Of a stretch of DNA of 64,000 nt, positions 1 through 61,133 are shown piece by piece. The notes below the pieces were generated by a model. That model was not told the DNA's origin. It saw only the letters and a program-made list of their open reading frames with translations, and did not search any database. Source of the DNA: Amoebophrya sp. A120 (taxonomy: Eukaryota; Protista; Dinoflagellata); NCBI GenBank assembly GCA_905178155.1, contig CAJINV010000007.1, forward strand, positions 3,862,265 through 3,926,264. The letters are read 5' to 3'. A program made the translations under genes and the position numbers. Within the stretch, counting starts at the first letter, position 1, and each line of letters begins with the position of its first letter.

Positions 1-3000
1 GAGCAAGTTATAAGAGTCCAGGTAAGCTTCGAGACCGTCCGGCAGCAGGCGCAGCAAAAGGGGGTCGACGTGCCCAGGCAGCTGAAGGACCTGGGGTACA
101 ACCGCTTCGAGGACTTTATCCTGAGTTGCGAGCAGTTCACCTGGACCTGCGACCCGATGGCGCTGGCGGAGCTCGGGCCCGGGATGGTGCTGTACTTCGA
201 TTTTCTGAAGTATCTGATGTCCCTGGCCGCTTTTTTTTTCGTATGTTACCTCCCCGCGATGTTTGCCGTGGTCAAGGGGCAGGACGACCGAGAATTGGAG
301 TTGAAATCCTGGGTGGTATCCCCTGTAAAATCCTCTTCGCCTGCTCGCCCAGCTGTTCGACGTAGTTGTTCCAGTGGTCTTTAATACCACGACTCGTGGT
401 AAAGATAGGAAACCTAGTACTTGTGTGCGTGTCGTGTTCAAGACCTGGTCCTGGTGGTGCATTTCCATTTATTACGCTCATAGGCAACATGTGTATCATC
501 CTCGTCGTGTGGAGGGTCTTGTCTTTCTCACCACATGCTTAAGTACACATGTGGTTCGGCTTATGGCACAGCCGAGGGAGGAGGAGGTCAAGAAGAGGAC
601 TCTTTTACATTGCATACCAGATTGATTCCTTGACAGTGCCTGCCAGTGTGAATCCCCAGGGCGCGGGAGCCGTATTTACGTGGCTAATAAACAACAGCCC
701 CGCGGTGGTTCCGTCTTACTACTTCGCCATTGGCAACACAGGCAAGGGCGTGCTGAACGACAACTGGGTGATTGTTTTGTACTTGGTTTCTCTCTTCTTC
801 GGGGCCATCTCGGTCGGACCCTACTCCGTCCGCCAAGAGAGAATCGACCAGGAGTTATGCAGTTCTCAAACGTTACATTCTCAACTGTTACACGAATTTG
901 TGATGCAAAAACAGCAAAAGTGAAATGGGGAAGATTGCGCCTCTTGCAGTACAGGTTTGGCACAGATTTAGATACTGTTTAGCCCTTTGGAAATTTGTCA
1001 TGCGAAGCAGCTTGATGGTGTAGATGATGATGAGCGTTTTGCATGGCAAATTATGTAACAGCTGAGAATGTAACGCTTGAGAACGCCATAGGAGTGCGAC
1101 CTCGCCTCGGTGTACCCCAACGACTATGGTTTGTTCATCCGGAATCTGCCGCGGGACGAGTGCGAAGAGAGCAAAATCAAGGAATATTTTGAGCAGAACG
1201 CGCTACCGGGCGATCGCAACAACCGCTGCGAGGTCGTCAAGGTCATCATTGCCTGGGACAGTACGAACCACAAAATTCGAAGCCACTGAACCGTCCACCT
1301 AGAGGTCAGAGGAGCATCAAAACGCATGACAGCTACTTGATTTCGGCGAAGATTCGAACTTCAATATTTGTCATGCTGGTAGTTGACGTAGTGAAGGAAG
1401 AGGAATATGCAAAAGCCGTTTGTTTTTTATATCATGCATCGGCCGCATGAAGAATTTGATTTTCCATCTACCTGTGCGGTAAAACGAATTTTTCTCTGGA
1501 CACAAATCACCATGTTCAAGCAGTACAGCGACAAGCAAGCCCAGCTGGGTAAGCAGTACTTTACCTTGTTGCAAAAAGGCGCGGAAAAGGACGACCCCAA
1601 AGTGCTCGAGGTAAAAACGCAGTTTGAAGAGGTTACTAAGGAGCTAAAATCGCTGAAAGCCGGACAGAATCTGCAGGGATCCGGGTGCGCGATCGTGGTG
1701 TTGAAGCACCAGAAGGACCACCGGGCGGCGCTGGACAAGTGGGAGAGGTCCATATGGCTGAAGATGGTGCACGGGCTGAGTGAGTCGTTTCCGGTGTGTG
1801 CCTGTTTGGAGGGGTTTGTGGCCTATATGATGGGCACCCCCTTGTACAAAAACTCCGCCGGGGAGGGGCACCTGTTGAAGGTGACGCGGGCTCCGAACCC
1901 GTCGGACGTAAATTGGCAGGACCTGGGACGAGGTAACTGCGAGTCCTTGCTCCAGCGGTGGCAGCTGTATTCCGTGATGGGGGTATAGTCTTTCGCTTTT
2001 CATCTTTTGTAAGTACACAGTGTCCCGTGACATGCTGAAGTCAAGAAAAAGACAGCAGTGTATCTTCACGAATGGAAACTTATATTTATACATAGAAGCA
2101 TATAGCATATGCATATTCCTCACAACCTCCACAGGTTATGATTGGCGTCTGTTTCGTTTGCACGTGGTTGCTTTCTGAATGGGCGGACGATGAGGAGGGC
2201 AACATGTGGGTGAACATGACAACGGCACTGACCGTGGCCGCGCTGAACGGAATTTTGCTTTTCGCGTCCCGGTATTTGACGCAATTTGAGTACCACGAAA
2301 CCAAAACCTCTGAAGACGGGTCGACAACGAAGAAGATGACGGTGGTACCCTGTGGAAAAGCATCGCAGTATCTGTACGTGTACCTAACTCGAAGTATGTA
2401 ACTGTGTGTACGTATACTACACTGTGTGTAGCTGTACGTATACTAGCAGGATTACATGACTACAGACCCAGTTGTTTCTTACCGAGGTCTGCATGCTGAG
2501 CTTCATTTTCATTTTGATCCTTTAATTGATATTAAGATTGACATTTTTCATGCCACCTGTACATCGAAAAATGGGAATGCGATGCTTGTTTTGCAATCCA
2601 TACCTGGCCATGGTGATCAACACGGCCATCATTCAGTTTATTGTGTACCGCGACGACGAGCACTGGTTCCGAGACGGGGGGCTGGTCACACAGATGATGT
2701 TCATGGTGCTCACGCACGCGGTGATCATGCCCTGGTTTGGGATGATCGACATAGGCTTCAAGATGAAACAGTACGCTGCGAACAGAATCGACTGGGAAAA
2801 GACCAAGCTTCCGCAAGAAAAAATCAACGGCATGTACACCCCGTCGGAGCTGGATTTACCGCGCCGCTACGCCATTTCGCTGAAGATTTTCCTGACCGCG
2901 CTCCTCTGCCTGCCGCTTTTCCCCTGGGCCATGCCGTTTTGCGTCCTGGGCCTGATGCTGCAGTACGCGGTGGACAAATACATGCTGGTCACGAAATTTG

Positions 3001-5276
3001 CCCGGCCGGCGTTCACGAAGAACCCGGAAAACGCGTTCGATGCGCTGTCTTTGCTGCACGGCACCATGTCGCTCTTTGCGCCGCTCACCTTCTTCCTCTT
3101 CCTCCGACCGGCCTGCACCGACGACGTGAAGGGTTTTCTCACCGGTTTGTTATTCCCGGTCATGTTCGCATCCTTCGCGACGTACCTCCTCCCACTTCCC
3201 GTGTGGCGGACCTTCACCCGGACTTTCTGCTGCGTCATCGGTGGGTGCGACAAGGCGTTCTACGGGAAGGACATCGAGGACACGACGCACGATATGGACT
3301 ACTACACGGCGCAGATGATGTGGGGCAAGGGAATGAAGTACCACAAGTCTCACCCTTTGTACGCGGCGTTACCCGACAAGGTGAACCCGGAGAACATCCC
3401 CCGGCCGGGATCATCCCAAGCCGCGCAGCAAGGGGCACAGGTTGGAGCAGGCGGTCAGCAGACGGTGGTGGTGCCAACCTCTACCGTGCAGATGTTCCAG
3501 CAGAATCAGCAGGCGATTGAAGTTATGAATCGCAAGCGTTCTAATATCCTCGCACTAGACCACGAGGACGAAATTGCACATTTTTTTTTGGAAGGAGACC
3601 TCCTCGTCGAAATTGTCATATTACAGTTGCAGATTCATTGTTATGTCACTGTCAGCAACAGTAGACGAGCAAGCAGATGCAGCAGATCCATCATGCCAGA
3701 CTGCAATTGAATTCATTGTTGTATGAGTCAGAGTCGTGCGCCGATAGTGCTTTTGTGGTGCATAGAGGTGAACTTGGCGAATGTCTTGATCAGCTACGAC
3801 CAGGTGAATCGGGCGGGCGCCGCGAACGCGGTTGTGATCCCGGCGTCGGATGTGCAAGTGTCCAACAATTACGGTGGCGGAAACGCGAACACTGTGCAAA
3901 CCTCTGGTGTGGTGGTGCAGCAGAGCTCCCAGCACTTCACGGTGGACCCTTATGGGGGAGGGAGGCAACAAGGTTCCTACGGAGGCGGGTCAGCCTATGG
4001 GTACGGCGGTTACGGTGGGGGCAATTACGTGATGAACTTTGGCGCCGCGCGAATGAATTACCAACCAGCCCCGGGGCAAATTGTTATTCCCGCGGCCCCT
4101 GCCACGGTGGACCCACGACAATCGGCTGGTATGATGGTGCAACAGCCCACTGTCGTCCAGCCCAATATCTACGGTGGTCAGCAGGCGCAACAGGTACAAA
4201 CCTTTCCTCCTCAACAAGTAAATCAAAACTATAATCAAAGCGGCCGCGGCGGTAGATCCTCATCTGGCGGGGGGTCTATTGTGCAAAATGTGTACAACTT
4301 CGGCCAAAGTGCCTACAACGCGTACAACAGGAAACGCAACAACGCGTATGACAGGACGCGTAACATTAGCATCCGGCCACCTCGTACTTCGAAAAAACTT
4401 CAAAAAGACTTCAAAGATGAGTTCAGTGCGAGTTCAATACGAACGCCGACAAAATCCTAAATTTATCATAAAGTCATTTGACCTGTTGCAAAATCGAAGA
4501 GAGCCAGCGTCTCTGTCGAAAGTCGGCTGACTTTGCGTAAAGTTTGCAATAACTCAAATGACTTTTTGCGGAATTTGCACCAAAAAAGTCAATTGACTTT
4601 GTGCTAATTTCACGAAAAGTCAAATGCCTTTTCCTGAATTCGGCTCATTTCACAGACAGGCAGCAAAAGTTTGAAGAATGTGCCCAATTTTTTTGCAGAA
4701 GTCAGTTGACTTTTTTGGAAATTAGCATAAAGTCAATTGACTTTTTTTGATGCAAATGCCGCGCAAAGTCATTTGACCTTGCCTGGAAGTTGTCAAAAGT
4801 CAAGTGACCTGTGCCCTTTTTGAAGTCAACGGATTTGGGCAAATTATTGAACTCGGACTGAACTCGGACTGAACTCGTAATGAACTCGCTTTTGAACTCG
4901 TGCTCCGGTCTTTTTGAAAACTCTAAAAGTGCGAGGTGGTCCCGTGCTAAGTAACAACAATCAACAACACAACTACCACAACAACTCTTCTTCCCAGCAG
5001 ACCTATAATTCTTCCTCCTACCAAAACCAATACCAAAATCAAAATCAGCCACAGTACCAGTCCAACCACCAAGCGCAGTACCAGCCGGGCGGCGGGCAAT
5101 ACATCGCCGCGGCGGCGCCCGTGGTCGTCGCAGCGAGCCAAGTGCAGTACCAGAATCCCGGGGCGGGAGGCGGTTACCAGCAGCCACAGCAGTATGGGGG
5201 ACCAGGGTACGGGGGCGGTGGGAATAACCAACCCGTGATAATATCTGCAGCGGATGTACAGGTCGTGAGGCAGTAG
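1..5276 (+). CDS. OSCA/TMEM63 (CSC1)-like multi-TM channel, 5'-truncated, multi-exon, with Gly/Gln/Tyr-rich tail
   Basis: Spliced frames give GPGMVLYFDFLKYL, YPNDYGLFIRNLP, VTRAPNPSDVNWQDL, FEYHET, DLPRRYA, QYAVDKY, typical of OSCA/TMEM63. Introns about 316-620, 855-1094, ~1261-1506 (uncertain), 1983-2134, 2345-2606, 3523-3768, 4360-4950. Confidence 0.8.
317..616. mobile_element. Fossil introner inside canonical GT-AG intron 316-620
   Basis: Left end TATCCCCTGTAAAA versus reverse complement of right end TATGCAATGTAAAA. Element (300) + 5 equals intron length 305. Confidence 0.55.
856..1090. mobile_element. Introner, ~50-bp TIR, TSD GGAGT
   Basis: GTTCTCAAACGTTACATTCTCAACTGTTACA pairs with TGTAACAGCTGAGAATGTAACGCTTGAGAAC. 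GGAGT at 851-855 and 1091-1095. Removal gives DQECDLASVYPND. Confidence 0.9.
2346..2602. mobile_element. Decayed introner (family A-like)
   Basis: TACCCTGTGGAAAAGCATCGCA ... TGCGATGCTTGTTTTGCAATCCATA. Flanks GGTGG/CCTGG. Removal gives KKMTVAMVINT. Confidence 0.7.
3524..3764. mobile_element. Decayed introner
   Basis: TATG...CATA ends, flanks GAAGT/GAGGT, frame restored (QAIEVNLANV). TIR is weak. Confidence 0.5.
4366..4950. mobile_element. 585-bp MITE-like intron with TTAGC termini and 6-bp TSD GTAACA
   Basis: TTAGCATCCGGCCACCTCGTACTT / AAGTGCGAGGTGGTCCCGTGCTAA. Internal AAAGTCAATTGACTTT palindromes and TGAACTCG repeats. Removal restores TRNNNQ. Confidence 0.85.
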
Positions 5277-6148: not shown

Positions 6149-9100
6149 ATGGCAGATCAAGATTTATTCATGATTCCCTTCCAGCAGGTCCTTCGGCTTA
6201 CCAAAGCTGGCTTCGCTAGTATCGTTTTCGTTGCGACTACGACGATGAAGACGCTACATACATATATACTTGATGCTTTGATAATGTCCCGAGAGCGACG
6301 AGATCGTCGTAGTTGCCGCAAAAATGATGAAAGCACAGGCAAGCTAGCATACTAGCGCGACATCAAGATGGACCGCGTCCCATCCATCAAGGTCGTTCAC
6401 GACCGCCTGCACCCGGCGTTGTCCCGGACCCAGACCTTCTTCGGCTCCCTTTTTGGGCGCAAAGCGGCGCAGGATCGAAAGGATGCAGAAGCGGACAACG
6501 ACGAGGCTGAAGACCACGAGGAGGGCGAGCACAGCAAGGACGGCAATGGTAAGGGGAAAAAGAAAAAGAACGGCAAGAATGGAAAAAAGTCCTCAAAATC
6601 GACGAAATCCAAGGAGAAGTCCGACACCCACGAGGACGGGACGCCGGGGGACCTGAACCTGGACGACGATGAGCCGGAGGAAACGGAGGAGGAAAAAAAG
6701 CGGCGGAAGCGGCGGGAGCGGGCCGAGCAAAAGGCACGGGAGCTGGACGCGAGCAAGAGTCCGGAGGAAAAAGCGCTGGACGAAGAGTTCCGGAAGATGG
6801 TGAACTTGAAAAAGAAAATCAAGAAGGAAATCAAACAGCTCGGGACCGACCCGGGCAAGCCGCCAGACGTGGAGGACTTCTACAAAACCTATCCGCTGAA
6901 AATTAACCATCCCCATCCAGTTTGTCATGCAAAACATACACAAAGTCCTCTGTTTGTCATGCACAAAGTGGTTGGGAATGGTCAATTTTCACGGAATAAA
7001 ACCGCAGACTTTTTGCATAAAAGGCTCTTCAAGGAGGATGAGATAGACGCGCTGGAATTGGCAAACGTGGAGGTGCCCGCGACCCCGGAGGAAACGGAAG
7101 ACCAAAAGAAGGAGAGATTGAAGAAAAAAAAATTGAAGAAAATGAAGCAGTCACAGTGTATTGCTCGTTTCGTTCTTGTATTTTGATAGCTGGGTTATTT
7201 CGGTTTTGCTTTTGCGTTGCTGTAATGCTGTGCTTGGGTTTATTCTTTTTTGTTCGATGATGATGATGATGTTTGTGAAAACGTTTTCACTGCGCATGTA
7301 GTTCATTTTCATTCTGAGCAGCTGTATTACACATGGAGTTTTGATAAGTGATGTTGTCCTATGGATTTTATTCAATTTACCCCACAACCACCCTAGCCGG
7401 AGACTACCCCCCGGCCTCCGAGCGGTTGAAGTACCGGCACAAGGTCCTGCAGCCACTGTCCATGCAGATGAAGCGGTACATTTACAAGGACTTCAAGCTC
7501 GAAAACCGGTATGACGACGAGATTTTCGTGGATGATAATTTGGACGACGAGAAGGTGAAGATCATGTTGGACCTTGGGTTCCAGTACGACGATCTGTACG
7601 ACGAGGAGACCGGCGACCCCGTGGAATACACGAAACGGGAATATCCAGGAAAAAACACCCATCCCCATCCATTTTTTGCATGACAAACAAAGGAATTTAT
7701 ACATGTTTTGCATGACAAATTGGATGGGGATGGGTGTTTTTTCCTGGATAGGGAACTGCGGGACATGGTCGCGCGGAGAAATTTATGCTGTGCAAAAGTA
7801 TCGTACTCGTACTAATTGCAAATATGCATGACAAATCTTCCTCCAAAGGTAAAACAGCATTACAACTGCGCCTTTTCTTCTTGCGAAAATTTGTAATGCA
7901 ACCTATACTACTACGTTACTTTTGCAATGCACAAAATTTCGAGCTGCAATTCCGCCTCGGGGAGTCGCCGACGCGCAAGTGGCGGCAGGACGCCCGGTTC
8001 CTCGGCGGAGAGCGGGGGTTGCTGGCGAAGCAGTTAAAGTCCCCGGGCATGATGCTCACGGACGAGGACATCGACAGGGAGGACGAAGTAAAACTACTTT
8101 GCCATAATTTACTTATTAACATCGACAATGAGTTGACGTTTTGACGTGCGGCTGCACCAATGCGCACGCGTGTGAAATTGTCATGCGCGAAAATTAATCA
8201 TCGATCGGGAGCACATAATACATCTGAAATCTTCAAAATCTTCTCAAAAAGGAAATGGACGAGCGCTACTCTGATGGATACGCCATGTGGGTTGAGCAAC
8301 AGCAGTGGAACTTGTACTACGAGACGCTCGCAGACGAGCTGGAACAAAATATGCATTGCAAAAGTTCTTGAAGCATCCATCGTACTAAAAGTACCAACTT
8401 TTGCATCTGAAATTGTATCCATCTCGAAAGGCATCAAGATGGAATCTGTGATGCTCGTGTAGATAGCAACCTACAAGAACTTGTTGTACTAGTTTTGTGA
8501 TGCAATATCGCGACTTAGTGCGGTAGAATTAGTGCGAGTACGAACATTGACGATACTTTTGCATTGGATAGAGAAGCTCCAGAAGCAGATGGCGAAGTAC
8601 GACGCGACGCACGGTGGGATCGGAAAGCAAGCGCTGATCGGCCGCCGGTTGAAGCACTCTTTGTCCCCCAGAAGCCGACAGAAGTTGAAACACGCGCTGC
8701 AGTCTCACGACCCGGACTCGTTCCCGCTGCCGTTGAATCTCCGAGACGAGGAGATCAAGCAAAAACGAAAGGAGATGAAGGAGGCTGGCGTGCGGCACAA
8801 CGTCCGCGCGCCCCCGCCACCCCCGCTGCCGAAGCGCGAATGGTTCGAGAGAATCGGGGTCGAAGAGGGAGTGCGCACCCCGCAGTCGGACGGGGATATT
8901 TCGAACGCGGAGAGGGAGATCAGAGAGCAGCTGAATCTATCCAAGGAAAAAACATTGTAGGTGTAACTTTCTTGGAGGATTAGCATGACAAATATGTCTC
9001 GCATGACAGCAAAAACCTGTCATGCGCAGATAGTACGGGAAACGCCCTTGAATGGACCCTACTATGCAGGCTCAGCATGACAGGCGCAATCAATTTGGAT

Positions 9101-12100
9101 GCTGCGCATCACAAATTTTTTACGCTAACAACGTTTTTTTCTTGGATAGAATCAGGAGCTGGAAGACTACTTGCTTGCCAACGCCGATGCCTACGACGAC
9201 TTCGACAGCCCCATGGCGCAGAAGGTCAAGGGCTTCGGGTACTTGTCTTCGTCGGGCAGTTATGAAATGCAAAAATGTCTGGGTCTGGAAACTTGTGATG
9301 CTAAAAATGCATGATGAAAACACTTTCGAATGCAGTCCGGCATGACAACTTCCCAAAACGCTTTCTCATAGGCAATCCGCATGAGAAACTGCGTTTTTGC
9401 ATGACAAACGAGGCTGCGACTTTTGCTGGTTATGCGATACAGATTTTCTAGGTATGGTAAGCTAGCATTACAAGTTCCAACCTTCCAGACCCAGACATTT
9501 TTACAATCCATAGCAGTCAATCCGGCGGTGGGCAGGACGGCACGGAAGTCGGTTTAGGGGGTAGCTCGAAGACGATCAAGAAAAAGAAATCCATCTTTTC
9601 CTCCATCGACCTGCCCGGCGCGAGCATCGCGCGGGGGGTCGCCTCCGTGTTCGGGCAGCAAGAGGAGAAGGAGCTGAAGGGCATAGACCTAGTGCAGGCG
9701 GGGCGGACCAGCTTCAACATGGCGGCGTACACCGGGGCGGACGGAGGCAGAGCGGGTTTGAAGTACGCGTTTACGAACACGGAGAAGCGGAACGCGCGAG
9801 AGCGGGACCAAATGTTGGACGAGCGAGACGAGTTGTTAGAAAAGCGGGAGTATGCATTGCAAAAGTACTTATCGTACTCGTGTAAGTGCATTAGAAATTT
9901 TGTCCTCAGCGTTAGAAATTTGCAATGCGGATTTACCTTTAAGAAAAAGATTTGTCGTGACTGCAATCACTACGAGTACGAAACCTTTGCACAGCATAAG
10001 GAGGACAAGGCCGACGAGCTGGATGAGGAAAGAAAACTCCTCGACGCGCAGTTGGCAGAGATGAGCTCGCCGTCGATTCTGCAGCAAAGCCAGCCGAAGG
10101 AGGGCGAGCACAAGTCGCCGCCGCGGGAGACAAAGGGGGACAGTTTTTACAGTTCATCGCGAAGTAGAAACAGCTTTTCGAATCCGTACGATTTTTCCGC
10201 AACCGCAGCGAGGGGGAGGAAGCTTCGGTCCCAGATGCGAGCGAGGTTTCACCAGAAAAACCACGAAAACTTCTATGTGGATGGCGAGCATAGCGCGGTG
10301 GTGCCAGAGGAAGGGATGGACGAGGAAAACCAAACAGCAGAAAAAGGAAAAGCAACTACAACAGCATTCTCATTCAGTACCGAAGGAGAAGCAACAGAAC
10401 ATCAAGAAGTTGAGGAACCATTCCCCGACTACTACTTCTTTCCCCCAACGACCCCGACGAGCACCAGCAGCACCCTTTTTTTCGAAGGCGAGCACAGCAT
10501 GCGCGCTCCGCCGCCCCCTCCCGAGGACCCACCGGTGCCGATCGCGTTGTACTTCCCCGATCCGGACTTTGAGCAAAATGACGAAGATGACGACCAGAAT
10601 GCAGAGGACCAGGAGGCCGCGATCCGGGAAGCCATGATGGTGAGTCAAGCGCAGGTTTCCGGCGAGGAAAACGAAAATAACGAAACCGACGAGCCAAGTG
10701 GCAGTAGAAGCAAGGACCACTTGATGGACTCCAGCCTAAAGAAAACCATGTCCGGCGGGCTGGAAGTGATAGAAGAGGGGGAGGGGGAGGAGGGAATGGA
10801 CTTGAACAGGGAGGGAAGTAAGGAATCCGTGCAAGAAAGTAGGCAGTCCGGAGATGTTTATGATAACGCTGACGGTGCTGGTAGAGGAGCAGAAGTAAAT
10901 GGGCAACTACAAGTCATCGATCCCGCTGCTGATCCGCTACAGAAATCGCAGGATGATTCCCTGGTTCTGTATGACACGATGGTCGACGGTAGACTGGTGA
11001 TGGCGGGGGAAGAAAACGTGGACATGACGGGCATCCCGAACCGCGACCGGGAGGACTACGAGCGGCCGAAGAGCCGCGAGCGAGACGAAAATTCCGACCT
11101 CCCCTCCTCCTCCGCGAGCTCGGGGGGCTCGGTGATTCACCTGAAGTGGGTCGCGCCGCCAAACGAAAATCCCGACGCCAGCTACCGGCTACCCCGACCG
11201 CCACTGGCCTTGGGCGTGGACTTGGACGGCGCGATTGCGAACATCAAACAGACCAAGGAACTCCACGCGGCGGCGTTGGAGAAGAAGCAAAAATTCGGGG
11301 AGCAGATGGTGAAAAAGCACGCGCCCAACGCGAAGAAGTACCTGCAATACGGGGCGGAGGTGGAGCAGATTTTGCGAAGGTCCAAGCACAGCGTCGAAGA
11401 GTACCAGCGGAAGCAGTACAAGCGGAAACTGCAGCGAGATCCGCCCCAGAAGACCAACGTGCGGGACCCGGCGTCTTGGGTGAAAGTGTTCCACTTCGAC
11501 ACCATGACGACGAGCTACTGGCGCTTATCAAATGCAAAAGCATCGTACTCGTACTAATCGCAGACACGCATGACAAATCTGATTCCAAAGGTAAATCAGC
11601 ATGACAAATTCCCTTTTACGTTCTGAGGATGAAATTTGTCATGCGATTTATAGATACTAGTGCGATACTTTTGCAATGCATAGCGCTACGAAGCATACAA
11701 CTTCGTCCTGCACGCATTGGACGCGACAAAGGACGTGATCCCGGTGACAAAACGGAACTTCGAGGTTTTCCAGCGAAAATTCGAAGAAGGAACGCTGCGG
11801 CAACAGGCAGAGGAGGTACTTACTTACTTTCATTTGTTTTTTTCTTTTGTCATGATAGCGTGTTTCCTTTGTGAACACAGAACAAGCAATAGCTCAAGTA
11901 ACAAATCTTCTGTGCAATGAAGCTTTGGTGTCCCTACCTACCAACATCCCTTTGTGCCCACCGCAACGTCAAAACACACGACGCGAATAATAAACTTCCA
12001 GGAGCGCAAGCGCCTAGAAGAGGAGGCTAAAGCGTTGGAGAGGAGCAAAAAACGTGTGAACCCCTTCGGCAAACGCATTTCTTTCGAGGACGAGGACGCC

Positions 12101-49024: not shown

Positions 49025-51223
49025 GTTGGATGAGATATTTTAGCAAAAACATGCGAGTGTCTGGCTCCCATCTTCTCTTTGCGCATGACTAGAAATAAAC
49101 CCACACCGAATACATCATGAAGCTTTGTTGTGCATGCGACAGACAGACTGAGTTTAGTTCTTGATTATGGTGGAGTCAAAAGAAACGCTGTCGTGTGCGC
49201 TCCTGTTTTTCGAGGTACACGTATGACATAATAATATCACAACAGCCACCTATCTGCACCCGGGATACTACTACGGAAACTATGCGGCGTTCGATATCTC
49301 AAAGGAAACGATCATCACCAAAAATTACACATAGATTCATTTGTAATGCGCTTGCAAGAATGTGCGACCGTTCAATTACGGAATGCAGTGCGCAGCTGTA
49401 GATAAAGTTAATAAAAGAGTATTTACCTCTTTGTACTTAATTACGTGGTGTGTTGATGATGGTGATTTTTCCCTTGATACCCAGAACACCCAGTGGAGCC
49501 GGCTGGTAGATTTTTGTCAATTTTTGTGGTAGGAGCGCGACATCAACACCATCGGGCCGACGTAGCATTCGCTTCATTCGGGGGGAAAGTACAGATATTG
49601 ATAATAATGGAAATAGATGCAGTCCAATCAATTTGAATTGATACAAAATTTCCGAGAAAAAAAAAGTTGATGCTAGACGTATACGAATGTGAAACTCAAA
49701 CTTCTTTGGCTTTGGAATACAGATTTTTTTTTGACGTAAATAGTGCTTAGAAATAAGCTGGGAGCTATATTGTTTGCAAGAACGCGGGTTAACGTTAACA
49801 CGATTACAGATTCCTGTGAAGCTGAAGATAATATTATTCTTTGCAACACCAGAAGCAAAGGACAATGAGTACTTGCATACTTAGATTTTTTTCTTGTTTT
49901 CTCTACATTATTGATGACTTGCAAAGACGATGCTGTGGTAGCTCTGTTTCCGTGAAAGCAAAGATGTGCTCTTTATGCTGAAGCTACGTAGTGATGCAGT
50001 GTTGATACTCACAACAGCCTGCTGGGGATACTAAACTACAAGGCGGTGATAAATTTATGAACATTATCGAAGGAAAATATTTTTGTAATTTGCAGCTTCG
50101 ATGGATCATGCACGTGACGATGTTTTGCCATTGCATGACATTGACATGGTCGATTTGGTTCCTGAGAGCGATATTATATTTGAAAGATAAGCTTTTATTT
50201 TAGTTTCGTACGTAAGCAAGCGGATGTCACTGTGACTCGCATACAAACTTGTTTTTTGAACAGAACCCGACATAAATATTTTGAACCGGTGTTACCTCTG
50301 AGGTGTATTTCTGGTATACCTTTGAACAGCAAAAAGATAAAAGTTTCAAATTTAGCCGAATTTGCCTCATTGAAAAGAATTTTTTTTACTCCCGTTTCGC
50401 AGTAGGAAAGTTTGCATGTGCTTTATCCAGCAAAATTTGAAATCGGAAAGGCGGATCCATCAGTTGCAACAATTTTGTCATCTTCGAGTTTCATCATGGG
50501 AAGCAAAAGCAAGAGCTTGCAATCGAACCTCCAAACGTTTCTAGTATTTTCTTCAAAAGAAAATGAAATAGTTCGAAAGAAACGCTATTGACACAACAAG
50601 CGTGCTTATTATTTCATCATATCAACACTACACGACCTGAAATTGTTGGTGGCAAGTGTGCCTGGCTCGAGCTTTTCACTACAACCGCAGTCACCGGCAC
50701 CACAGTAAAATTTCGCAGTCATTCTGTTCCCCCACGCCCGCAAACGCAGCGTCGTCTGCCACTGAAGAAGGAAAAAAAAGGCATTAGACAAGGTAAAAGA
50801 TCCTGCTCTTTCAAATCGCAGCTAGGTGGTGATGTCATCAAACCCAATTTTTTAGAAGCCAGCTTCCGATCTAACGAGTAACTTCGAGTTAGCACAATCC
50901 GTTCAAAATATGATTTTAGATGTGACAAGAATCTTTATTCCTGTTGATACATGATGTAGATGTAGAAGCGAAGTTGTAATTGTTTCTTTCCCACAGCATC
51001 GACCCATCTGATAATTCTGAACACAATCACAAACGACCTTAACCATCCCCTTCATACCCACATCAAGTACCACCTATTTGTTCTTTAGTTTTCATGACAG
51101 ACGTGTGGCACCACGATATAAGGCGTGACTCTCACTATGTCTGAGGCGTAAAATTTAGTGGTTTCTATCGAATACCGACGCCCCCTCCTAAACCCCAAGG
51201 TAAGAACTCCTTACTCTCACAAC

Positions 51224-53574: not shown

Positions 53575-56500
53575 TTGACCGAAGGCGATCTATCAGTACC
53601 GCGAGAAGAAAAGACAAGGATTGACGAGCTCGTCTATAGCATGTGGTTTCCCAAGAAAGACGGAAGCGGAGAAGAAAGCAGCAGCGGCCGGTGTTTCAGT
53701 AGCACTAGCACTGCTACGCCGCCTTTCGAGCTGGAGCGCACGAATAAGGTGCTGGTGCAGCTGCGCCAGCATCGGAATTTCGCACTCGATAAACAAAACG
53801 GCGCAAGGTCGACTAGCCAAAGTTGTAGGAGAACAAGGAGGTGGCCCGAGCTGCCCAACAACGATACTACGGGAACATTAACACCATCAAAAAAGGACGA
53901 GATCGAGCACACTATTAAGGCTCGCTGGTACGACAATCCTGGCAGCATTTGCGGTGCCGGAGGACCAAACCCAAGCGTGCGAAGCAGGAGCTGCTTATTC
54001 GGTCACGTCGAAGATCCTGCTGAGGAAACAAAAAAGACGAGGTCGATAACGATGTTGCGGGAATCGCAATCGGATGCGCAACATATCTCGTTCATCCGTT
54101 CATCTTGCGGTGGACAATGCGCTGATGATCCTTGTTTCGACTATGCCGCCAGCTGTGCGACCGACGAAGCCTCTATTACAGCAACGGGATCCCGCTCTTC
54201 CTGCTCGTCCTCGAGGTCCACTCGCGATAAAAGAACTTGTGGAGATGAAGCGCCAGCAGGAAAGAGGGCAGCTGCTGTACGACCACCAACTGAAAAGAGG
54301 AAAGAACATGACAGAACCGCTGGTGGAACAAGTTCACTCTCTGTGATGAATTCAAATATTGTGTCAGAATCAACTTCGAGACGCCTGAACACGGGTAGGT
54401 CCGCCACCTCGAGAAAACGAAAACGAAAAACCAAAACAATAGAGCCGGACGACTTTAGTAATACTTATAGCTGCGAAGAAGAGCACTGTGACTTTTCTAA
54501 AGGCTCTCCTGGTGCCGTTAGGCATTTTCGAAAAGAGATGGAGCCACCGCTTATGCAAAGTGGACACGCTGCTCCGTTGGCCGACCTCGTCAGTGGCAGG
54601 CCCCATAGTACCAGTGCGGCAAGAATTGCGTATCAGCCGTCGAAAAGGAAAACAGCAAAAGTAGCAATTTACAGTTTCCGGCTGCTCACCCCGATCTGTA
54701 ACTCAATCGCCATGTTTCTCATCCTTCTTCTTCGCATATTCTCATTTCTGCGAGACATTTTAGCACGACACTGTGGGTTTTTTGGAGGGTCTTCAACTGC
54801 TTCGACGTCGAAGGGAACGCTCCACCCTAGCGCCCTTGCGGCCATTGCTCCGAGTGGAGGTCGACTCAGAAGGACCACAGCTACTAGTACCCATGCACGA
54901 GGAAAAGCTGGCTGGAGCTGCTCTAGAAGTAGCGCTACTGCGTCGAAGAACGCAGAAAATGTTGACCTCCACACAACTACTTCGGTCCTGCCGGGCAAGA
55001 CGAGGATTAAAAATCAACATGCGAGCGCTATTAACAAGGCGCGTTCAGCACATAGGAACCGAAGCACTGCGGCAGGAGGGACATGTTGGATGAGGCCGCC
55101 TAGCAGCAAGAAGACTACATTGACTTCAAGAAAAACTACAAGAACCCACTGGCTGCTATCTTCAAGAGCGGCTTTCACGAAAACCCTTTTCTACCAGCTG
55201 CAGCTCCTTCCCCTCCTCACTTTCGCGTGGCACTACATCCCGGGCTCGAACGAGTCCAATATTTTTTACACCTTTCAAGAATTCTACACAGACGCGCAGT
55301 ACGGGCCGGACTTCGGGTACTACAGCAAAGGCAGAATCCTGCAGGGCGAGTTTTTCAACTCCTACACCACCTTCCCGATGGGCCTGTCCCCCATGTTCGG
55401 GAACCTGATCGCCGACCGGCTCTACGCGACCTGGCTCGCGATGGCCAAGCCACCAAAATTCGACATCTTCGAATTCGGTGGGGGCACGGGCGTCCTGGCC
55501 CGCGACATTCTGTTGCGGATCGAGGATCGCTACCCCATGATGGTACCCGCCACGAAGTACACCCTGGGGGAGCGCGCGGCGGGCCTCCGCCGGCAGCAGA
55601 AGAAGACCATCAAGGCCGCCAACCTGACCCACTCGGACCAGATGTTCCAGGTGCGGGAAGCGGACGCGCGGGAGGCCGCGCGGTTGAAGCAGCCGGGCGA
55701 CAAGTTCGTGGGCGCGGTGATCTCGAACGAGCTCCTGGACGAGTTTGACCCCGTGAAGCTGCGACTCATTTGGGAAACCGGCAAGCCGCCCAACCCCTCC
55801 GAGGTCCGCAGCTGCCGGACCTGGCGCGAGGTCTACGTCATGCACCGCGTGGACAAATCCCTTCTTTTGAATAGCAACTGGCAGCGGGAAGCGTCCGCGA
55901 TCGTGTGTGCCTACCTGGATGACCCCTGGATTGCGCGGCTGATCGCCAAACAGTTCGCGAACGAGCGGCGGTGCTACCCCTACGCGGTGTGCTGCGTGCC
56001 CTTATTGCTGGCGTTGAATAAGCTGCTGCACTATGACCACCTGTTTCTGGAACGGTTGGAGTACCGGAACGTGAACTTGCTGATGGAAGAATACGAAAAG
56101 GAGGTGGCATATGGAAGCGTCAGAATCGAAATCGTCAAAGTTGAAATAGTTTGTCATGCATAAAATGCAACCCACAAAGTGCCTGTCTTGCAGAGTAGGC
56201 AAGGGAGGCAGACCGTAAGCCTGTTGCGGGGTAGAAATAGAGCTGCTAAAGTAGCATGACAAAAGGCATACTCCTTACCCAAACCGCATTACAAACTGGA
56301 TTTCGGTTCTACCCAAATTTGTCATGCGCCACTTGAAAACTAGGCGCGAACTGGTATCCGTTTTATGCATGGTAAACTATTTCAACTTTGACGATTCCGA
56401 TCCTGACACTCCCACATGGCAGACCCGCGTGTCTTGGTCACGAAAGAGCAGTATCGAATGATCCGCCGGGCCCATTTGCACGATTACCAGGTGGAGGAGG

Positions 56501-59500
56501 GACTGCTCACCTCTGACAAAATTGCCACGGATCAGGTCGAATTAATTTTTGACATGAAGAATTTGCTCACTCCTTTGCCGCGCAAGGGGCGGGGTCCGAA
56601 GACAAGTATTATGATCTACGTCTTCTTGTTCACAACGCACCATCGAGAGGACCACGTACAAGATGCGCAAAAATTCTAGGATCGAGGCGCCGTGGTCGTG
56701 CAAGATCTTCTGCAAAAATGAATGCTTTGAACAATACGAAATATTACATCAAAACAGGTATCCATGCTTCTGACGGAAGAGCGGTGCGCCGAACTGACAG
56801 CGTTTTTCGCGCGCCACGCGCAGCGGTTCACCCGGGCCGCGGAGCGCCGCGACGCAATCGACGGTACCACTCCGCTGAACGACATTTCGTCCTCTTCGTT
56901 CCTTAAGTGGGTGGTCCGTCCCGGCGAGGAGCAGTTTGCGCAGGAAGCCAGCAAACTGTTGGACCAGGGCATCATGATCGCGATTGACTACGGTGCGGAT
57001 TTTGAGGCCCTGGCTTGGCTGCAGATATCAAATGTGAAAATGTCTGGGTCTGGAAGAATGCAAGATTTGTGATGCAGGTTTTCCATGACCCATGAGGTCT
57101 GGAATGCGAGACCCAGCATGACAGATTCTTTGAGATCTCTATCATGCCTCTCGTGCTTGGTCAAAAGCGGACAGCTTTTGGCACTCACGCAACACAGATT
57201 TTTGCATCATTTAGGTTTAGCATGACAAGTTCTAATCTTCCAGACCCAGACATTTTTGCAGTTGATAGCAGATCGTGAAGCCCAATTACGAGGGGATTCA
57301 CATCATGGATGCCCGGTACGGCTATCAAATGTAAAAATGTCTGGGTCTGGAAGAGTGTAGACTTGTCATGCAGATTTTCCATGACCCATGAGGTCTGGAA
57401 TGCGGGACTTAGCATGACAGACTCTGCGAGGCCTCTGCCATGCCTATTCTGCATGAGAAACTCCGTTCCAACTTGGTCAAAAGTGGACAGCTTTTGGCAC
57501 TCATGCAACACAGATTTTTGCATGCTTCAGATTTACCATGACAAGTTGCAATCTTCCAGACCCAGACATTTTTGCAATTCATAACGGCAATTTCTGCACC
57601 AACAAGGGTGAGCTGCAGTGTCCCGGCATGCACGACATCACAACAAACGTGGACTTCACCAATATATGAAAGTGCACAAGAACTCCCCTTCATCCGCATC
57701 CCCCTATATTTGTATCAATGCAAAATACCTAACTCACAGCAACAGCTTGCTCGTAAGGACTACTTGCAAGACAATGATAAATTCTGGAGCCTCATCAAAC
57801 AGTGCAGTACTACAATGCGCACGAAGATTTGTTGTCATCCGGAAGCCCCTTTCTGCTGTTGCTTGTGGTGATGCTGTAGCTGATGCGTTTTAAGCGCGCA
57901 CCTAGGGGGAGGTGTGCACACGGATACAATTTCGCCGAGGCTGCGAAGGAAAAAAACTTCGAGCTCGTGTCCTACGCGCCCATGATCGAGCTGGAACGGT
58001 TATCACACAGAAAAAACAAGCTAGTGTGTGTGTGTGGCATATTTGTATTGCTACTGATGCAAAAAGATACAGCACTAAAACTTCTATACGTATACTAGTA
58101 CAACACACAGGATCAAATCTGCGATGTTTATCTTGGGCCAGCCCATAGCAACAGGCTGCTTGAAGTATAAATATGCAAGACTCGTCCTGACAGATGATCT
58201 TTTCAACATCGTACTACTCCTGCGTAGTTGCAAAATCTCAACATCCTAGTTTTTTTCTCCGGGATGGCGTTCCTTTGGCTTCGGTGCGCACGAAGAGTCG
58301 CTCTTTCCGCATGTGATCGAGCAGGCCGGCGGAATCAGAAGCGCCGGCGTCTGGGGCTGGTACTCCACCAAAAACACCGAACCCTGGGCCAGCTTCAAGC
58401 TGCTGATCATGCAGAAGCAAGGTAGTGCGGTGCCGGCAGCTGGGAGTTCTACACTTGGTGGTCCAGGAACGACGAGACCAGCAGACGCGGAGCCCATGCT
58501 GAAAATGAACCCGTTTCATGGTACGTGTACGTCTCTAGTAGATCTTTCGAGGCCGCTCTTCGTCAAGAACTACACAAGTCGTGTTGATGGCTTGAGTGAT
58601 GATGATGGCACTTGTTCACGACGGCATCTCTAACCGTGCGGCACATGATAACGCTCACGACGAAAGCGGCTGCTAGTGCTAGAGTGAGACGCAAGGAGAT
58701 GAACATCATCAGCACCGTATCGAACAAAAAAGTGTTAACGTTACGGCTTCGGCGATTTTTAGAATAAATTTTTTTATTTTGCCGCTCAGTCGCTTTCTTT
58801 TCATGTTAAAATCAACACTTTTCATGATACTAGCTACCGCGGGGCGCTGTTGTAGCGTAATCAGTTTGAGCTAGCTAGTGCACAAAGTATTCCATTCCGC
58901 ACCCGAGTCCGGCGTAACCTCCGGAGGAAGACCATGGGCGCCGCGTCTCTGACTGTTTTGGCATGATATGGTGGTGATTCTGGCGACCTTTCGCCTTCAA
59001 GTCTGTCGCGCAAGGTCTGCGTCATGTGTCGGCATATGAGTCTACGCGACAATCCCCCGAAAGGTCCGCGCAACTCCCCACCATATCGCCCGCTTAGAAC
59101 TGTATAGATTCGCTGCGTTTCCAGTCATTGCGTTGTAGCTTTTGAGCCATCTCGCCAAGTTCTTCCCATGAGGCAGAAAAGCTGTCATTTCGAGGATGAG
59201 GAAAATTGGCAAAATTCGGGCACCAAATTGCCCAAATTCTGCAGTCACCCAGAAAACCGCTAACACTTTTTAGACAGGGCGCTATGATCGACCCAGCCTG
59301 CCAAAAGCAGGCTTTTTTGTATGAAAACGCCAAAAAATGACCGTTAACACTTTTTAGACGGGGCGCTATGGTCGATTTATCCTCCCCAGAGCCCGTGCTC
59401 CTTGGCCTGCAGGGTTCTGGACAAAGTAAGTCGATCATAGCATGCTGTCTAAAAAGTGTTAACGGTTTTTCTGGGTGACTGCGAAATTTGGCCTCAAATT

Positions 59501-61133
59501 GATGGCAAATCATGGATTTTTTCAGCGGAATTCCCTATGACCCCAAAAAACCGCTAACACTTTTTAGACAGCGCGCTATGGTCGATTCTGCCTCCCCAAA
59601 GCAGGCCCATCCCCAGTGTCGCTGGCGGCGACGGGGATGGTGGCAGCTCGAGATCATCTCTCAACCACATTGCTTGCAGTAGCTGCCGTCCACGAAGCGT
59701 CCCAAAACAGCTGAAAGGCAGGCTCCGCCGACGCCGAGCTGTTGTGGAGGCGCTGCGACCGGGTCCAGGAGCCGACGCGCAGGGGAAGGCTCCTCATGGA
59801 GCGGCCCCGGTAGGCGAAGTTCCGCGTCGTCAGACCTTGTGCACTAGCTAACTCAAACATAGTTAGCTACTTCAGAGGCCCGCAATAGCTAAAAGAGTGA
59901 GCGGGCCCCTTTATGTATTCAGATAACGCCGGCAGGGAACCAACAAAAAATTTTTAATGCAAAAAATCCAAAACCGTAACGGAAAACATCATCAGCACCG
60001 CCGCAAAGTTTTGTCGTTCCAAATTTAGGTATGGCTCAGTTTCCGCTCCTCCGTGCCCGAGACGAGATCGATAACTGTATGGAGGAGGTGAGTATCAATC
60101 GCAAGTAGAAATATGGCTGGGTCTTGAAGATTGCGAGAATTGACGTGCTAGTTGTCTGGCACGACCCTGAGCTCTGTATTTTTGCGTCGCTACGAAGAGC
60201 TCGTCTCGTCTGTCATGCAGAAACAGAGTTTCTGTTTCTCACACACGCGAAATACACATCAACACAGAGCCCGCGCGAAAGAATCTGTCAGGTTTCGCTG
60301 TGCATTGCAGGAGACTGGGCCCATTATTCAGTGACATGCACCATCATCCCAACTTTCGCTTTCCAGACCCAGACATATTTGCAGTGGATAACGATGCTTC
60401 CCTCCCTGGCCGGCGCCATCCTGCGGGAGTCGAAGCTGAAGCTGAATTCGGTGGAACCCTGGGCGACGGCGAGTATATTGGCGCGTGTGAATCCGGATCT
60501 TGTCTACGACCAGGAACTGGTAACTAATGTAATTCTTGCATAAAACTTTTATGAATATGAAGTCTTTTTTGAAGCATCTCAGACGATGATGTTCTTGACG
60601 ATCACGATGATGATGATAGTGATACATCGGGCACCAAGTTGTAGAAGTATTCGCTTATTCATTGCCGTTTTATGCTACAAGTACAACTAGTGGTAGTGTA
60701 TCAGGTTCAGCATAAACAAAAAATGCACCAGCTGCAAGGCAGTGAGTATGTAACTCCTACTTTGCTCGAACTTGTTGCACAACAGGAGCGGCAGCGGGCC
60801 ATCATGAACGAGTACCACCTGTCCATCTTGCTGCTCGATTATGCAACCCATTTGTCGCAAAACCAGTGCCCCATTCAGTGGGACGAAGCTTCCATTCGCG
60901 ACATTGCAGAGGCGCGGTTGCTGAAGCAAGTGTTCGGCGAGGAGGCCCTGGAGCGGGCACTGAAGTACTACGTACAGGTGAATAACATGACCGTCGTGAA
61001 ACCGTCCTACGTCTCCCAATTTACCCCGGTGGGCTGCATGCTGCGGAAGGGCCTCCTCGGGTATTGCGGGCATAATGAGGTACTGAACGAGGCCTATGTG
61101 GAGGACTTCGACTTGGGGCACATGCTGATGTGA
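53575..61133 (+). CDS. MidA/NDUFAF7-like SAM-dependent methyltransferase with long extensions, multi-exon
   Basis: YGPDFGYYS, YTTFP..SPMFG, EFGGGTGVLARDIL, SNELLD, IDYG, PGMHDITTNVDF. GT-AG introns 56536-56757, 58521-60028 and 60520-60785 plus six introners. True start and inclusion of the 60029-61133 exons are inferred. Confidence 0.75.
56110..56416. mobile_element. Introner with ~55-bp TIR, TSD TGGCA
   Basis: GTCAGAATCGAAATCGTCAAAGTTGAAATAGTTT / AAACTATTTCAACTTTGACGATTCCGATCCTGAC. Confidence 0.92.
57026..57267. mobile_element. Introner family C, TSD GCAGA
   Basis: TATCAAATGTGAAAATGTCTGGGTCTGGAAGA ... TCTTCCAGACCCAGACATTTTTGCAGTTGATA. Confidence 0.93.
57323..57583. mobile_element. Introner family C, TSD ACGGC
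   Basis: Same TIR and a closely related body to 57026-57267. Removal gives DARYGNFC. Confidence 0.93.
57665..57926. mobile_element. Decayed introner
   Basis: TATGAAAGTGCACA ... TGTGCACACGGATA. Flanks CAATA/CAATT. Removal gives VDFTNFAE. Confidence 0.75.
58001..58266. mobile_element. Decayed introner
   Basis: TATCACACAGAAAAAAC ... GTTTTTTTCTCCGGGATG. Flanks ACGGT/GCGTT. Removal gives LERSFGF. Confidence 0.6.
58718..59984. mobile_element. 1.27-kb intronic insertion with family E-like left TIR and 16-bp flanking direct repeat
   Basis: AACATCATCAGCACCG at 58702-58717 and 59985-60000. Starts TATCGAACAAAAAAGTGTTAACGTTACGG. Four internal CCGYTAACACTTTTTTAGAC..GCTATG.TCGA copies, one of them inverted. 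Confidence 0.75.
60093..60390. mobile_element. Decayed introner family C
   Basis: TATCAAT...AAATATGGCTGGGTCTTGAA / TTCCAGACCCAGACATATTTGCAGTGGATA. Flanks GTGAG/ACGAT. Confidence 0.75.

Follow-up and report, generated by a model that had tools for sequence, protein, structure and literature searches.

One splice register for introns with terminal inverted repeats in Amoebophrya sp. A120

Introners of the window

The window, a stretch of 64,000 nucleotides of the Amoebophrya sp. A120 genome, carries at least thirty-six introns that are bounded by terminal inverted repeats (TIRs; TAT..AAAA / TTTT..ATA) and 5-bp target-site duplications (TSDs), one of them in a gene for eIF4E. A scan for TAT..ATA pairs returned 22 matches (21 elements and one mispairing), against one match in each of three dinucleotide shuffles. 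PWM scanning with pairing by hand gave 35 elements; the 36th (37931-38238) was added later and stands outside this set. The elements at 48640 and 49295 were paired after the RNA joints had been seen, their right ends having been detected earlier, and a pairing of 49222-49479 was dropped, the spliced contig showing 49295-49479.

Among the 35 elements the TSD is perfect in 19, matches at four of five positions in 5 and at three or fewer in 11. Of 142 coding-flanked copies, 103 have border direct repeats that agree exactly over five bases, and none has an exact repeat of 4, 6, 7 or 8 bases. Both orientations occur (55:41), the element at 14418 running opposite to that at 15620. Internally, the elements fall into several unrelated families that have only their ends in common, and the intron at 34776 (2136 nt) carries a 1.8-kb nested repeat insertion between near-perfect ends, its TSD matching at 0/5 positions. 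TIRs, a fixed-length TSD, short size and insertion in either orientation are features of MITEs; the available text of Farhat 2021 (PMC7789003) reports that no cognate transposase was found in A120.

The TIR introns of the window are already known A120 introners, and proteins recorded for Amoebophrya sp. A120, an eIF4E among them, are 100% identical to those encoded here. They show an inverted repeat of TAT, seven variable bases and an A-tract, a border repeat, and repeated families absent from mRNA; the published introners likewise have TAT, seven variable bases and at least three A, with direct repeats of 3-5 nt and a proposed hairpin (PMC7789003). Introners were all that 118 related loci shared with the window, these loci being compared as DNA sequence and their strands called by a method that was correct for 31 of the 35 window elements. 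The introns are listed below, where k is the count of left-copy TSD bases retained in mRNA, P0001-P0004 are proteins and "length sum" refers to a 6441-nt contig described in the next section.

316..620, +, TIR intron GT..AG, TSD 1/5; RNA joint, k 3-4
855..1094, +, TIR intron TT..AG, perfect TSD; RNA joint, slidable
1261..1506, +, old TIR intron GT..AA with terminal pairs 2 and 3 disrupted; RNA joint, k 3-4
2345..2606, +, old TIR intron GT..TG; RNA joint, k 2-5
3523..3768, +, TIR intron TT..GG (GT..AG at k=3 gives the same mRNA); RNA joint, k 3-5
6889..7002, +, TIR intron CT..AC, perfect TSD; public protein P0003 only
7641..7754, +, TIR intron AT..GA, perfect TSD; length sum, P0003
7783..7937, +, TIR intron TT..AT, perfect TSD; length sum, P0003
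8349..8574, +, TIR intron AT..GA, TSD 3/5; length sum, P0003, k 1-5
8937..9152, +, TIR intron CT..AT, perfect TSD; length sum
9260..9516, +, TIR intron TT..AG, perfect TSD; length sum
9850..10002, +, TIR intron GT..GA, TSD 4/5; contig piece from 10000, length sum, P0003, k 1-5
11525..11686, +, TIR intron TT..GC, perfect TSD; RNA joint, slidable
14418..14578, +, TIR intron AT..TG, orientation opposite to 15620; length sum
15078..15227, +, TIR intron TT..AA, perfect TSD; length sum
15619..15776, +, TIR intron CT..GC, perfect TSD; length sum
16022..16224, +, TIR intron AT..GC, TAG if right copy used; length sum, P0003 k 3-5, relative P0004 retains YQ
17290..17559, +, TIR intron GT..CC, perfect TSD; RNA joint, slidable
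17769..18002, +, TIR intron AT..CG, perfect TSD; RNA joint, slidable
18682..18798, +, TIR intron CT..CT, perfect TSD; RNA joint, slidable
21557..21722, +, predicted TIR intron AT..AG, perfect TSD; sequence only
25075..25348, +, old TIR intron TT..GT, eIF4E gene; public protein P0001, k 3-5, Pfam IF4E
34776..36911, +, 2136-nt TIR intron AT..AG, nested repeat insertion, TSD 0/5; public protein P0002, k=4 only
37930..38242, +, old TIR intron CT..TC, outside set of 35; P0002, k 0-4
38365..38645, +, TIR intron TT..TT, perfect TSD; P0002
41968..42081, +, predicted TIR intron GT..CT, TSD 4/5; sequence and open frame
45253..45406, +, predicted TIR intron CT..GA, perfect TSD; sequence only
47486..47707, +, old TIR intron CT..TT, non-slidable; RNA joint 47485>47708, k=4 only
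48639..48816, +, old TIR intron GT..GT, non-slidable; RNA joint 48638>48817, k=4 only
49294..49483, +, old TIR intron AT..CA, non-slidable, unused AG 1 base downstream; RNA joint 49293>49484 (two runs), k=4 only
56109..56420, +, TIR intron AT..GC of a divergent TIR family, perfect TSD; RNA joint, slidable
57025..57271, +, TIR intron AT..AG, perfect TSD; RNA joint, slidable
57322..57587, +, TIR intron CT..GG, perfect TSD; RNA joint, slidable
57664..57930, +, TIR intron AT..AT, TSD 4/5; RNA joint, k 0-4
58000..58270, +, TIR intron TT..GT, unused GT 1 base upstream; RNA joint, k 4-5
60092..60394, +, TIR intron GT..GA; RNA joint, k 2-4

The register in spliced contigs and proteins

The original prediction held that all TIR introns share one splice register, in which the mRNA takes bases 1-4 from the left TSD copy and base 5 from the right. 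RNA evidence was drawn from assembled contigs of two runs, X1 and X4, both marked 'RNA?'. These contigs lack GT-AG introns and leave silent stretches uncovered, and thus behave as mRNA. Among the matches listed, thirty contig-to-window joints were found. Of these, 18 belong to TIR elements and 11 to TIR-free GT-AG introns; the remaining one (9948>11654) was dropped as a repeat-to-repeat match with foreign letters in between.

At all 18 of the TIR joints listed, the length skipped equals that of the element plus five. A k of 4 fits all 18, including those at mismatched TSDs, whereas k=3 fits 14 and k=5 fits 11, and no other value fits all; under a uniform k of 0-5 the chance of this is 2.4e-5. 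The register can never be seen from copies with a perfect TSD (19/35), as their junctions are slidable, but three joints (47485>47708, 48638>48817 and 49293>49484) are non-slidable and each is exactly k=4. A contig of 6441 nt maps from an exon start at 7397 to 16308 with ten further elements gone, their summed length being as predicted. A cut after left-copy base 4 with resumption at right-copy base 5 is confirmed.

Public protein P0002 fits only k=4 at the 2136-nt intron; P0001-P0003 are gene models possibly built on X1/X4 transcript data, and so are not independent of the RNA joints. The codon arguments first made for the register (a TAG at 16023, loss of a Trp at 25076, and the peptides SLAE, TNF and VML) hold, most of them narrowing the cut to several positions only. 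Five stop-codon cases from related loci, ambiguous in frame, were set aside. Raw-read runs X7 and X8 gave 120 and 2 aligned reads, respectively, nearly all partial and on repeats; they contain no joints and are uninformative on the register.

End motifs, GT/AG and terminal pairing

The splice code of the TIR introns can be written N/TAY..AYA-N4/ (slashes as separators). All 35 window donors have T at +2 and A at +3, and their +4 base is T (32 donors) or C (3 donors), which resembles native donors; N-TAY, the U2-type context at +2..+4, is present in 35/35. Native non-TIR donors shown by RNA read GTAY in 10 of 11 (background 0.11, p=2.6e-9), with TAT or TAC at +2..+4; the TAT of the TIR therefore sits in the native donor register. 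Position +5 is C or G in TIR donors and mixed in native ones. The right TIR has a U-tract at -18..-15 and S-A-Y-A at -8..-5, with A at -7 invariant. All nine non-canonical joints in the fully listed set of 15 carry the TIR end motif, although part of the motif conservation of old copies comes from the detection method itself. Pair-breaking C is tolerated at +4 (3/35) and at -6 (3/35), and no TIR intron of the window has a G at +3 or -7, where it would keep a wobble pair. Changes at TIR position 2 number one at the 5' end against nine at the 3' end (191 copies from related loci and 35 window copies; p=0.021, a post hoc comparison at one of three positions). The branch-site motif YTRAY, uninformative here, occurs in the last 50 nt of 7/35 TIR introns and of 0/11 canonical ones.

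Read in the confirmed register, the GT donors predicted at 316, 2345, 9850, 17290, 41968 and 60092 and the AG acceptors predicted at 620, 1094, 9516, 21722, 36911 and 57271 are all present. Many copies had been noted to have neither: in related loci this is so for 84 of 122 perfect-TSD copies, two having both. All four bases are found at +1, -1 and -2. The register does not follow the nearest dinucleotide, since splicing bypasses a GT 1 nt upstream at 58001, an AG 1 nt downstream at 49295, and both a GC and an AG at 47487. The non-slidable introns (CT..TT, GT..GT and AT..CA) lack the GT/GC-AG termini of U2-type introns. In diverged copies no drift was detected to G at +1 (11 mismatched cases against 5, p=0.21) or to a 3' AG (1 vs 1 of 24). 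Related loci show a mild excess of AG at TSD positions 3-4 (14/122, p 0.02-0.08).

Pairing between the ends varies along the helix. In 213 young copies positions 8-16 pair in 88-99%, and pair 4 is paired in 44% and mismatched in 56%. At positions 4-10 of 11 old window copies, pairing with the own partner equals 3.27 against 3.12 for shuffled partners (p=0.37); in 36 old copies from related loci the difference is slight (4.72 vs 4.33, p=0.043). RNA-checked old copies of the window still splice in register despite the chance-level pairing of the 11-copy set, and the 1262 element has an RNA joint with terminal pairs 2-3 broken. Folding gave a terminal pair probability of at least 0.6 in 19 of 34 introns, and an in-register probability below 0.1 at all 16 positions in nine, five of which are RNA-shown. 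As the end motifs are self-complementary, a terminal helix of 3-4 bp can nearly always be drawn. The proposal that cut sites are measured from the TIR stem is thus supported in part: its single register, its offsets (1 nt 5' and 4 nt 3') and its independence from GT/AG stand. A role of the stem as ruler is putative; it would suit the folded terminal pairs, the two orientations and the slight pairing kept by old copies in related loci, and would be at odds with the TAT in native donor register, the mismatches at pair 4, the chance-level pairing of 11 old copies and the nine introns with no predicted in-register pairs.

Recognition of the intron ends

Non-canonical introns make up more than 60% of A120 introns, and their splice-site diversity has been called unprecedented, their borders and mechanism being left open (PMC7789003). 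U2, U4, U5, U6 and 83 of 89 spliceosomal proteins were found in A120, and the available text reports that U1 was not (Farhat 2021, PMC7789003). The explanation that we favour, at about an even chance of being right, is that an altered U2-type spliceosome reads TIR motifs at fixed offsets, probably with help from a hairpin that would bring the intron ends together. The cuts fall 1 nt ahead of the left TAT and 4 nt beyond the right ATA, so that one 5-bp target copy is restored. The left TIR would supply +2..+4 of the native GTAY donor, and a single 5'-site reader, either U6/U5 or a protein, would serve native and TIR donors alike, with G+1 relaxed for the latter. Less firmly, the right TIR may set the 3' cut at a fixed distance, possibly via a branch adenosine near the end. 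The 3' motif does not resemble the YAG at which native introns end, so a second mode of 3' recognition must be assumed.

A tentative alternative, which we consider possible at rather less than even chance, is an excision like that of euglenids, in which a nuclease and ligase, or a non-standard spliceosome, would read the TIR duplex as a structure and cut it so as to leave overhangs of 1 nt (5') and 4 nt (3'), probably with release of a circle. The constant offsets from the stem ends, the terminal and helix pairing given above, the occurrence of both orientations, the k=4 of the 2136-nt intron and the missing U1 all agree with it, as does the case of Euglena, where pairing is needed together with sequence at fixed offsets (PMC12501133). 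Against it speak the TAT in native GTAY register, the frequent mismatch at pair 4, the old copies spliced in register, and the tolerance of pair-breaking C where wobble-keeping G is absent. Held with the same reserve is the wider picture of a U1-less dinoflagellate with a second, dinucleotide-free code N/TAY..AYA-N4/, set by palindromic transposon ends and run by a stem-measuring, possibly non-spliceosomal machine.

Catalysis of excision by the introner RNA itself is improbable: the elements are structured and repeated and have internal hairpin motifs, but unrelated internal families are alike only at their ends, a 1.8-kb nested insertion is tolerated, and the window has no Rfam match at gathering thresholds and no group I/II catalytic core. 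Ordinary dinucleotide-guided splicing, sliding along the duplication to whichever GT/GC or AG lies nearest and making the register illusory, would suit the copies in which GT or AG falls at the register or close to it (for 3524, k=3 gives GT..AG and an unchanged mRNA) and the mild AG enrichment; it is contradicted by the non-slidable joints, the unused dinucleotides and the many copies with neither signal, and is very improbable indeed. Hardly more credible is that the joints come from DNA, as empty-site alleles or by excision, or from assembly artefacts. X1 and X4 are contigs and are marked only 'RNA?', none of the listed runs that contain the stretch being recorded as RNA, yet the same contigs lack GT-AG introns and leave intergenic and intronic stretches uncovered, X1-X4 contain 0.61-0.67 of the words against 0.91 in X5/X6, and alleles lacking the insertion would not combine the two diverged copies at a single constant position.

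The published account of A120 introners describes variable borders (PMC7789003), whereas those of the window follow a constant 4+1 split of a 5-bp duplication. End dinucleotides vary because they are bases of the target site, and the apparent border diversity thus reduces to one rule. No statement of a fixed register was found in the literature searched, and Figs 3, 4 and S19-S25 of Farhat 2021 and subscription papers may show it. In Table S4 of that paper the nine commonest non-canonical types of A120 all have T at +2, and those of A25 all start TT, with an inverted repeat starting TTA (PMC7789003); in A25, TA would then still occupy +2/+3 and the overhang would differ, though aligner placement could matter.

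Euglenid nonconventional introns are similar in their non-GT/AG ends, slidable repeats, paired motifs at fixed offsets and likely MITE origin, and their register was likewise resolved from non-slidable copies (PMC12501133, PMC11282704). Their code in Euglena, N3CDG..CH'GN5-6/R, has overhangs of 3 and 5-6 nt, a G-C motif and circle release (PMC12501133, PMC11282704). The window introns lack this motif and these offsets: theirs are 1 and 4 nt, with an A-U motif and a 5' motif equal to the native donor, and no downstream purine is needed (T or C in 20/35). Fritillaria borealis also has TIR/TSD-derived non-GT/AG introns in bulk, removed by a U2 spliceosome with altered 3'-site factors, but it keeps U1 and preferred AG-AN ends (PMC13326754), whereas A120 has all bases at +1, -1 and -2. 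Introners of Aureococcus, Symbiodinium and Polarella resemble DNA transposons, splice at a fixed position relative to the TSD, leave mRNA length unchanged and in some families occur in either orientation; they carry or recruit GY/GA and AG, which limits insertion sites (PMC9860276; bioRxiv 2020.10.14.339549), while most of the perfect-TSD copies in related loci have neither signal.

The elements were known before, and what is gained is a rule and a mechanistic handle. In Euglena, resolving slidable borders into a code has been the topic of a separate study. A single register would permit exact re-annotation of such introns in A120, and it points to where branch points or circle junctions would lie. 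If stem measuring were true, it would be an independent parallel to euglenid splicing, with MITEs inserting harmlessly, in either orientation, in almost any exonic 5-mer. As the TIR is palindromic, each orientation provides both signals, so that an insertion at practically any 5-mer of an exon leaves the protein unchanged, and the fixed register explains how introners spread in coding DNA at little cost.

Introners of the window and their target duplication

The window is gene-dense eukaryotic DNA in which all genes examined lie on the + strand. Pfam identified eIF4E, an NTPase, XAP5 and a SAM methyltransferase (12 pieces scanned), and public Amoebophrya sp. A120 proteins are 100% identical to two window exons. 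Scanning for TAT..ATA pairs with complementary ends returned 22 matches (21 elements and one mispairing) compared with one in each of three shuffles; a PWM scan with hand pairing raised the number of elements to 35, and a 36th was added later. They match the introners (transposon-derived introns with terminal inverted repeats, TIRs) of Farhat et al. 2021, whose available text (PMC7789003) describes an inverted repeat with a TAT start, seven variable bases and an A-tract, together with short direct repeats. All are ~110-310 nt in length except for the introner at 34777, which holds a nested insertion (34788-36563) that is either LTR-like or a rearranged repeat. Within it, the stretches 34788-34949 and 36174-36335 form a direct repeat of 162 nt (99%); it also contains a repeat of 120 nt and seven copies of 55 nt. 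A further insertion of ~1.27 kb (58702-60000) lies within canonical intron 58521-60028, and its two edges (58702-58717, 59985-60000) are exact direct repeats of 16 nt. The insertion starts with a TIR resembling that of the introner at 21558, with no matching right TIR evident. Approximately 117 partial raw RNA reads of run X7 are confined to the introner end 9463-9505 and have different flanks; they represent a related element in transcripts, apparently from another strain.

Searching with a single TIR pattern gave 119 loci in metagenomes, and 118 of them (387,583 bases) were read. These loci, known from DNA alone, have only introners in common with the window. A perfect 5-bp repeat flanks 213 of their 295 elements, whose ends were paired blind to the flanks. 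Among 142 coding-flanked copies, exact repeats of length 5 were present in 103, and of length 4, 6, 7 or 8 in none. The target site duplication (TSD) is 5 bp. The main introner family occurs in either orientation to the gene (55:41), as do the window copies, and therefore the splice signals likely reside in the palindromic TIR ends.

Splice register in transcripts

Contigs of runs X1 and X4 (putative RNA, labelled 'RNA?') were aligned to window positions 1-20000 and 47380-60480. The prediction, fixed alongside alignment of the second contig region, was a cut after base 4 of the left TSD copy and resumption at base 5 of the right copy (k=4, k being the number of left-copy bases kept in mRNA). 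At least 30 joints were found (those listed for 1-20000, all for 47380-60480): 18 at TIR elements, 11 at GT-AG introns and one discarded as an artefact. Canonical introns are omitted by the same contigs as carry the TIR joints, and silent stretches are uncovered. Skip length equals element length plus 5 in 18/18 listed TIR joints. Only k=4 is consistent with all 18 of these (probability under uniform k, 2.4e-5), while k=3 fits 14 and k=5 and k=2 fit 11 each; eight joints are uninformative on register because their repeats are perfect. Three joints are non-slidable:

47486-47707, + strand, non-slidable joint CT..TT, X4 only
48639-48816, + strand, non-slidable joint GT..GT, X4 only
49294-49483, + strand, non-slidable joint AT..CA, X1 and X4

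Two of these three elements were paired after the RNA was seen, their right ends having been detected earlier. In 47380-60480, fully listed, all nine non-GT-AG joints obey the k=4 rule, and a 6441-nt contig maps exactly from the exon start at 7397 to 16308 with ten more elements excised at predicted lengths. The original prediction of one fixed register for TIR introns, readable from transcripts over mismatched TSD copies, is confirmed by this transcript evidence. Its coding arguments at 16023 and 25076 (eIF4E) also agree with public gene models, which allow k 3-5 at both, and YQ at the 16023 junction is kept in a relative (P0004). The models fit k 0-4 at 37931 and k=4 only at 34777, where the host intron is still consistent with the register despite its nested insertion. 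Contigs also extend from the gene ending near 49500 to the XAP5 gene (49484-51437; X4 49484-50550, X1 50054-51437), which suggests long or overlapping UTRs, the contigs not resolving single transcripts.

Splicing is independent of end dinucleotides. A GT one base upstream at 58001, an AG one base downstream at 49295, and both GC and AG at 47487 are unused. Many copies had been said to possess neither GT nor AG in register, and this holds for 84/122 oriented perfect-repeat copies of the related loci, where 2/122 have both. G at TSD position 5 in these loci (26/122) shows no enrichment over the expected 29%; for AG at positions 3-4 the enrichment is mild (14/122, p 0.02-0.08). A strong strand-asymmetric base bias occurs at TSD position 5 alone in the 122 oriented copies, with A in 53 (p=9e-6) vs mirrored T in 27 (p=6e-4). 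This independently singles out that base, though codon phase could contribute; the preference may lie at intron +1, at exon +1 or in codon phase. Introners 316-620 (in register) and 3523-3768 (at the equivalent slid position) now read as canonical GT-AG, and some 'canonical' introns of the A120 genome are disguised introners.

Recognition of the introner ends

GTAY is present in 10/11 native donors shown by RNA (background 0.11), and therefore the TAT/TAC of the TIR coincides with native donor +2..+4. Among 35 window copies T+2 and A+3 are invariant and +4 changes only to C. When these are pooled with 191 copies of the loci, TIR position 2 has changed once at the 5' end and nine times at the 3' end (post hoc p=0.021). 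These donor and TIR patterns favour reading by sequence. Two observations count against a spliceosomal reading: the introner 3' motif is unlike native YAG ends, and in diverged copies no drift was found toward G+1 (11 vs 5, p=0.21) or toward 3' AG (1 vs 1 of 24). At their 3' ends, several of the 11 RNA-shown canonical introns are rich in A instead of pyrimidines, and YTRAY occurs in the last 50 nt of 0/11 of those in the window.

Alongside the observed 5-bp duplication, fixed register, dinucleotide independence and both orientations, a mechanism may be proposed in which insertion is of DNA-transposon type (the available literature knows no transposase for introners) and 5' recognition uses the register of native donors with a relaxed demand for G+1. 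Its reader would be a spliceosome with U2, U4, U5 and U6 and with U1 not detected, the composition given for A120 in the available text of Farhat 2021 (PMC7789003). More tentatively, the invariant A-7/A-5 may fix how far away the 3' cut falls, perhaps with a near-terminal branch. In some protists the spacing from branch to 3' site is fixed.

This spliceosomal reading, with donor-register 5' recognition and a set-distance 3' cut, has about an even chance of being correct. A stem-measured, euglenid-like excision route, as originally proposed, is a lesser possibility. Folding (20 C) predicts a terminal pair closed at probability >=0.6 in 19/34 introns, TIR positions 8-16 are paired in 88-99% of the young copies (n = 213), and own-partner pairing is slightly retained in 36 old copies of the loci (p=0.043). 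However, TAT/TAC lies in the native GTAY register, and the own-partner pairing of 11 old window copies, measured over positions 4-10, equals chance (3.27 vs 3.12, p=0.37). Moreover, just 44% of young copies form the pair that adjoins the three terminal A-U pairs; in 9/34 folded introns no in-register pairs are predicted, yet RNA shows five of these spliced, and terminal pairs 2-3 are absent in the introner at 1262. The data shift the odds without separating stem and sequence models, because the motifs are mutually complementary. Self-splicing, dinucleotides sliding within the repeat and artefactual joints are each less probable still. The original interpretation is partly supported: the cut has fixed offsets and GT/AG are not read, whereas old copies that pair at chance level, and are spliced in register where RNA covers them, count against the stem as ruler.

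Relation to published introners

The variable border range of Farhat 2021, in its available text, is the expected aligner output for a 5-bp repeat, and a sentence there on the commonest repeat position may partially anticipate the 4+1 split. In the available part of Table S4 (PMC7789003), T occupies +2 in each of the nine commonest A120 types, and TT opens each of nine A25 types; the A25 inverted repeat starts TTA (section 11). By sequence, A25 would thus have TA at +2/+3 like A120, but the 5' overhang would be absent. The register is not stated in the available text of PMC12130899, PMC9860276, PMC11282704, PMC11453091, PMC12005148 or bioRxiv 2020.10.14.339549, and no publication giving the N|TAY..AYA-N4| rule was found in the openly accessible literature. 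As far as the accessible texts describe them, the Euglena code N3CDG..CH'GN5-6|R is the closest working analogue (PMC12501133), the ends of diplonemid non-canonical introns likewise pair (PMC12621601), and in Fritillaria non-GT/AG introns can be handled by the U2 spliceosome (PMC13326754). Introner elements were already known. What appears to be new is a variant way of defining their splice sites, by a fixed register independent of dinucleotides, and it makes a question left open in print directly testable.
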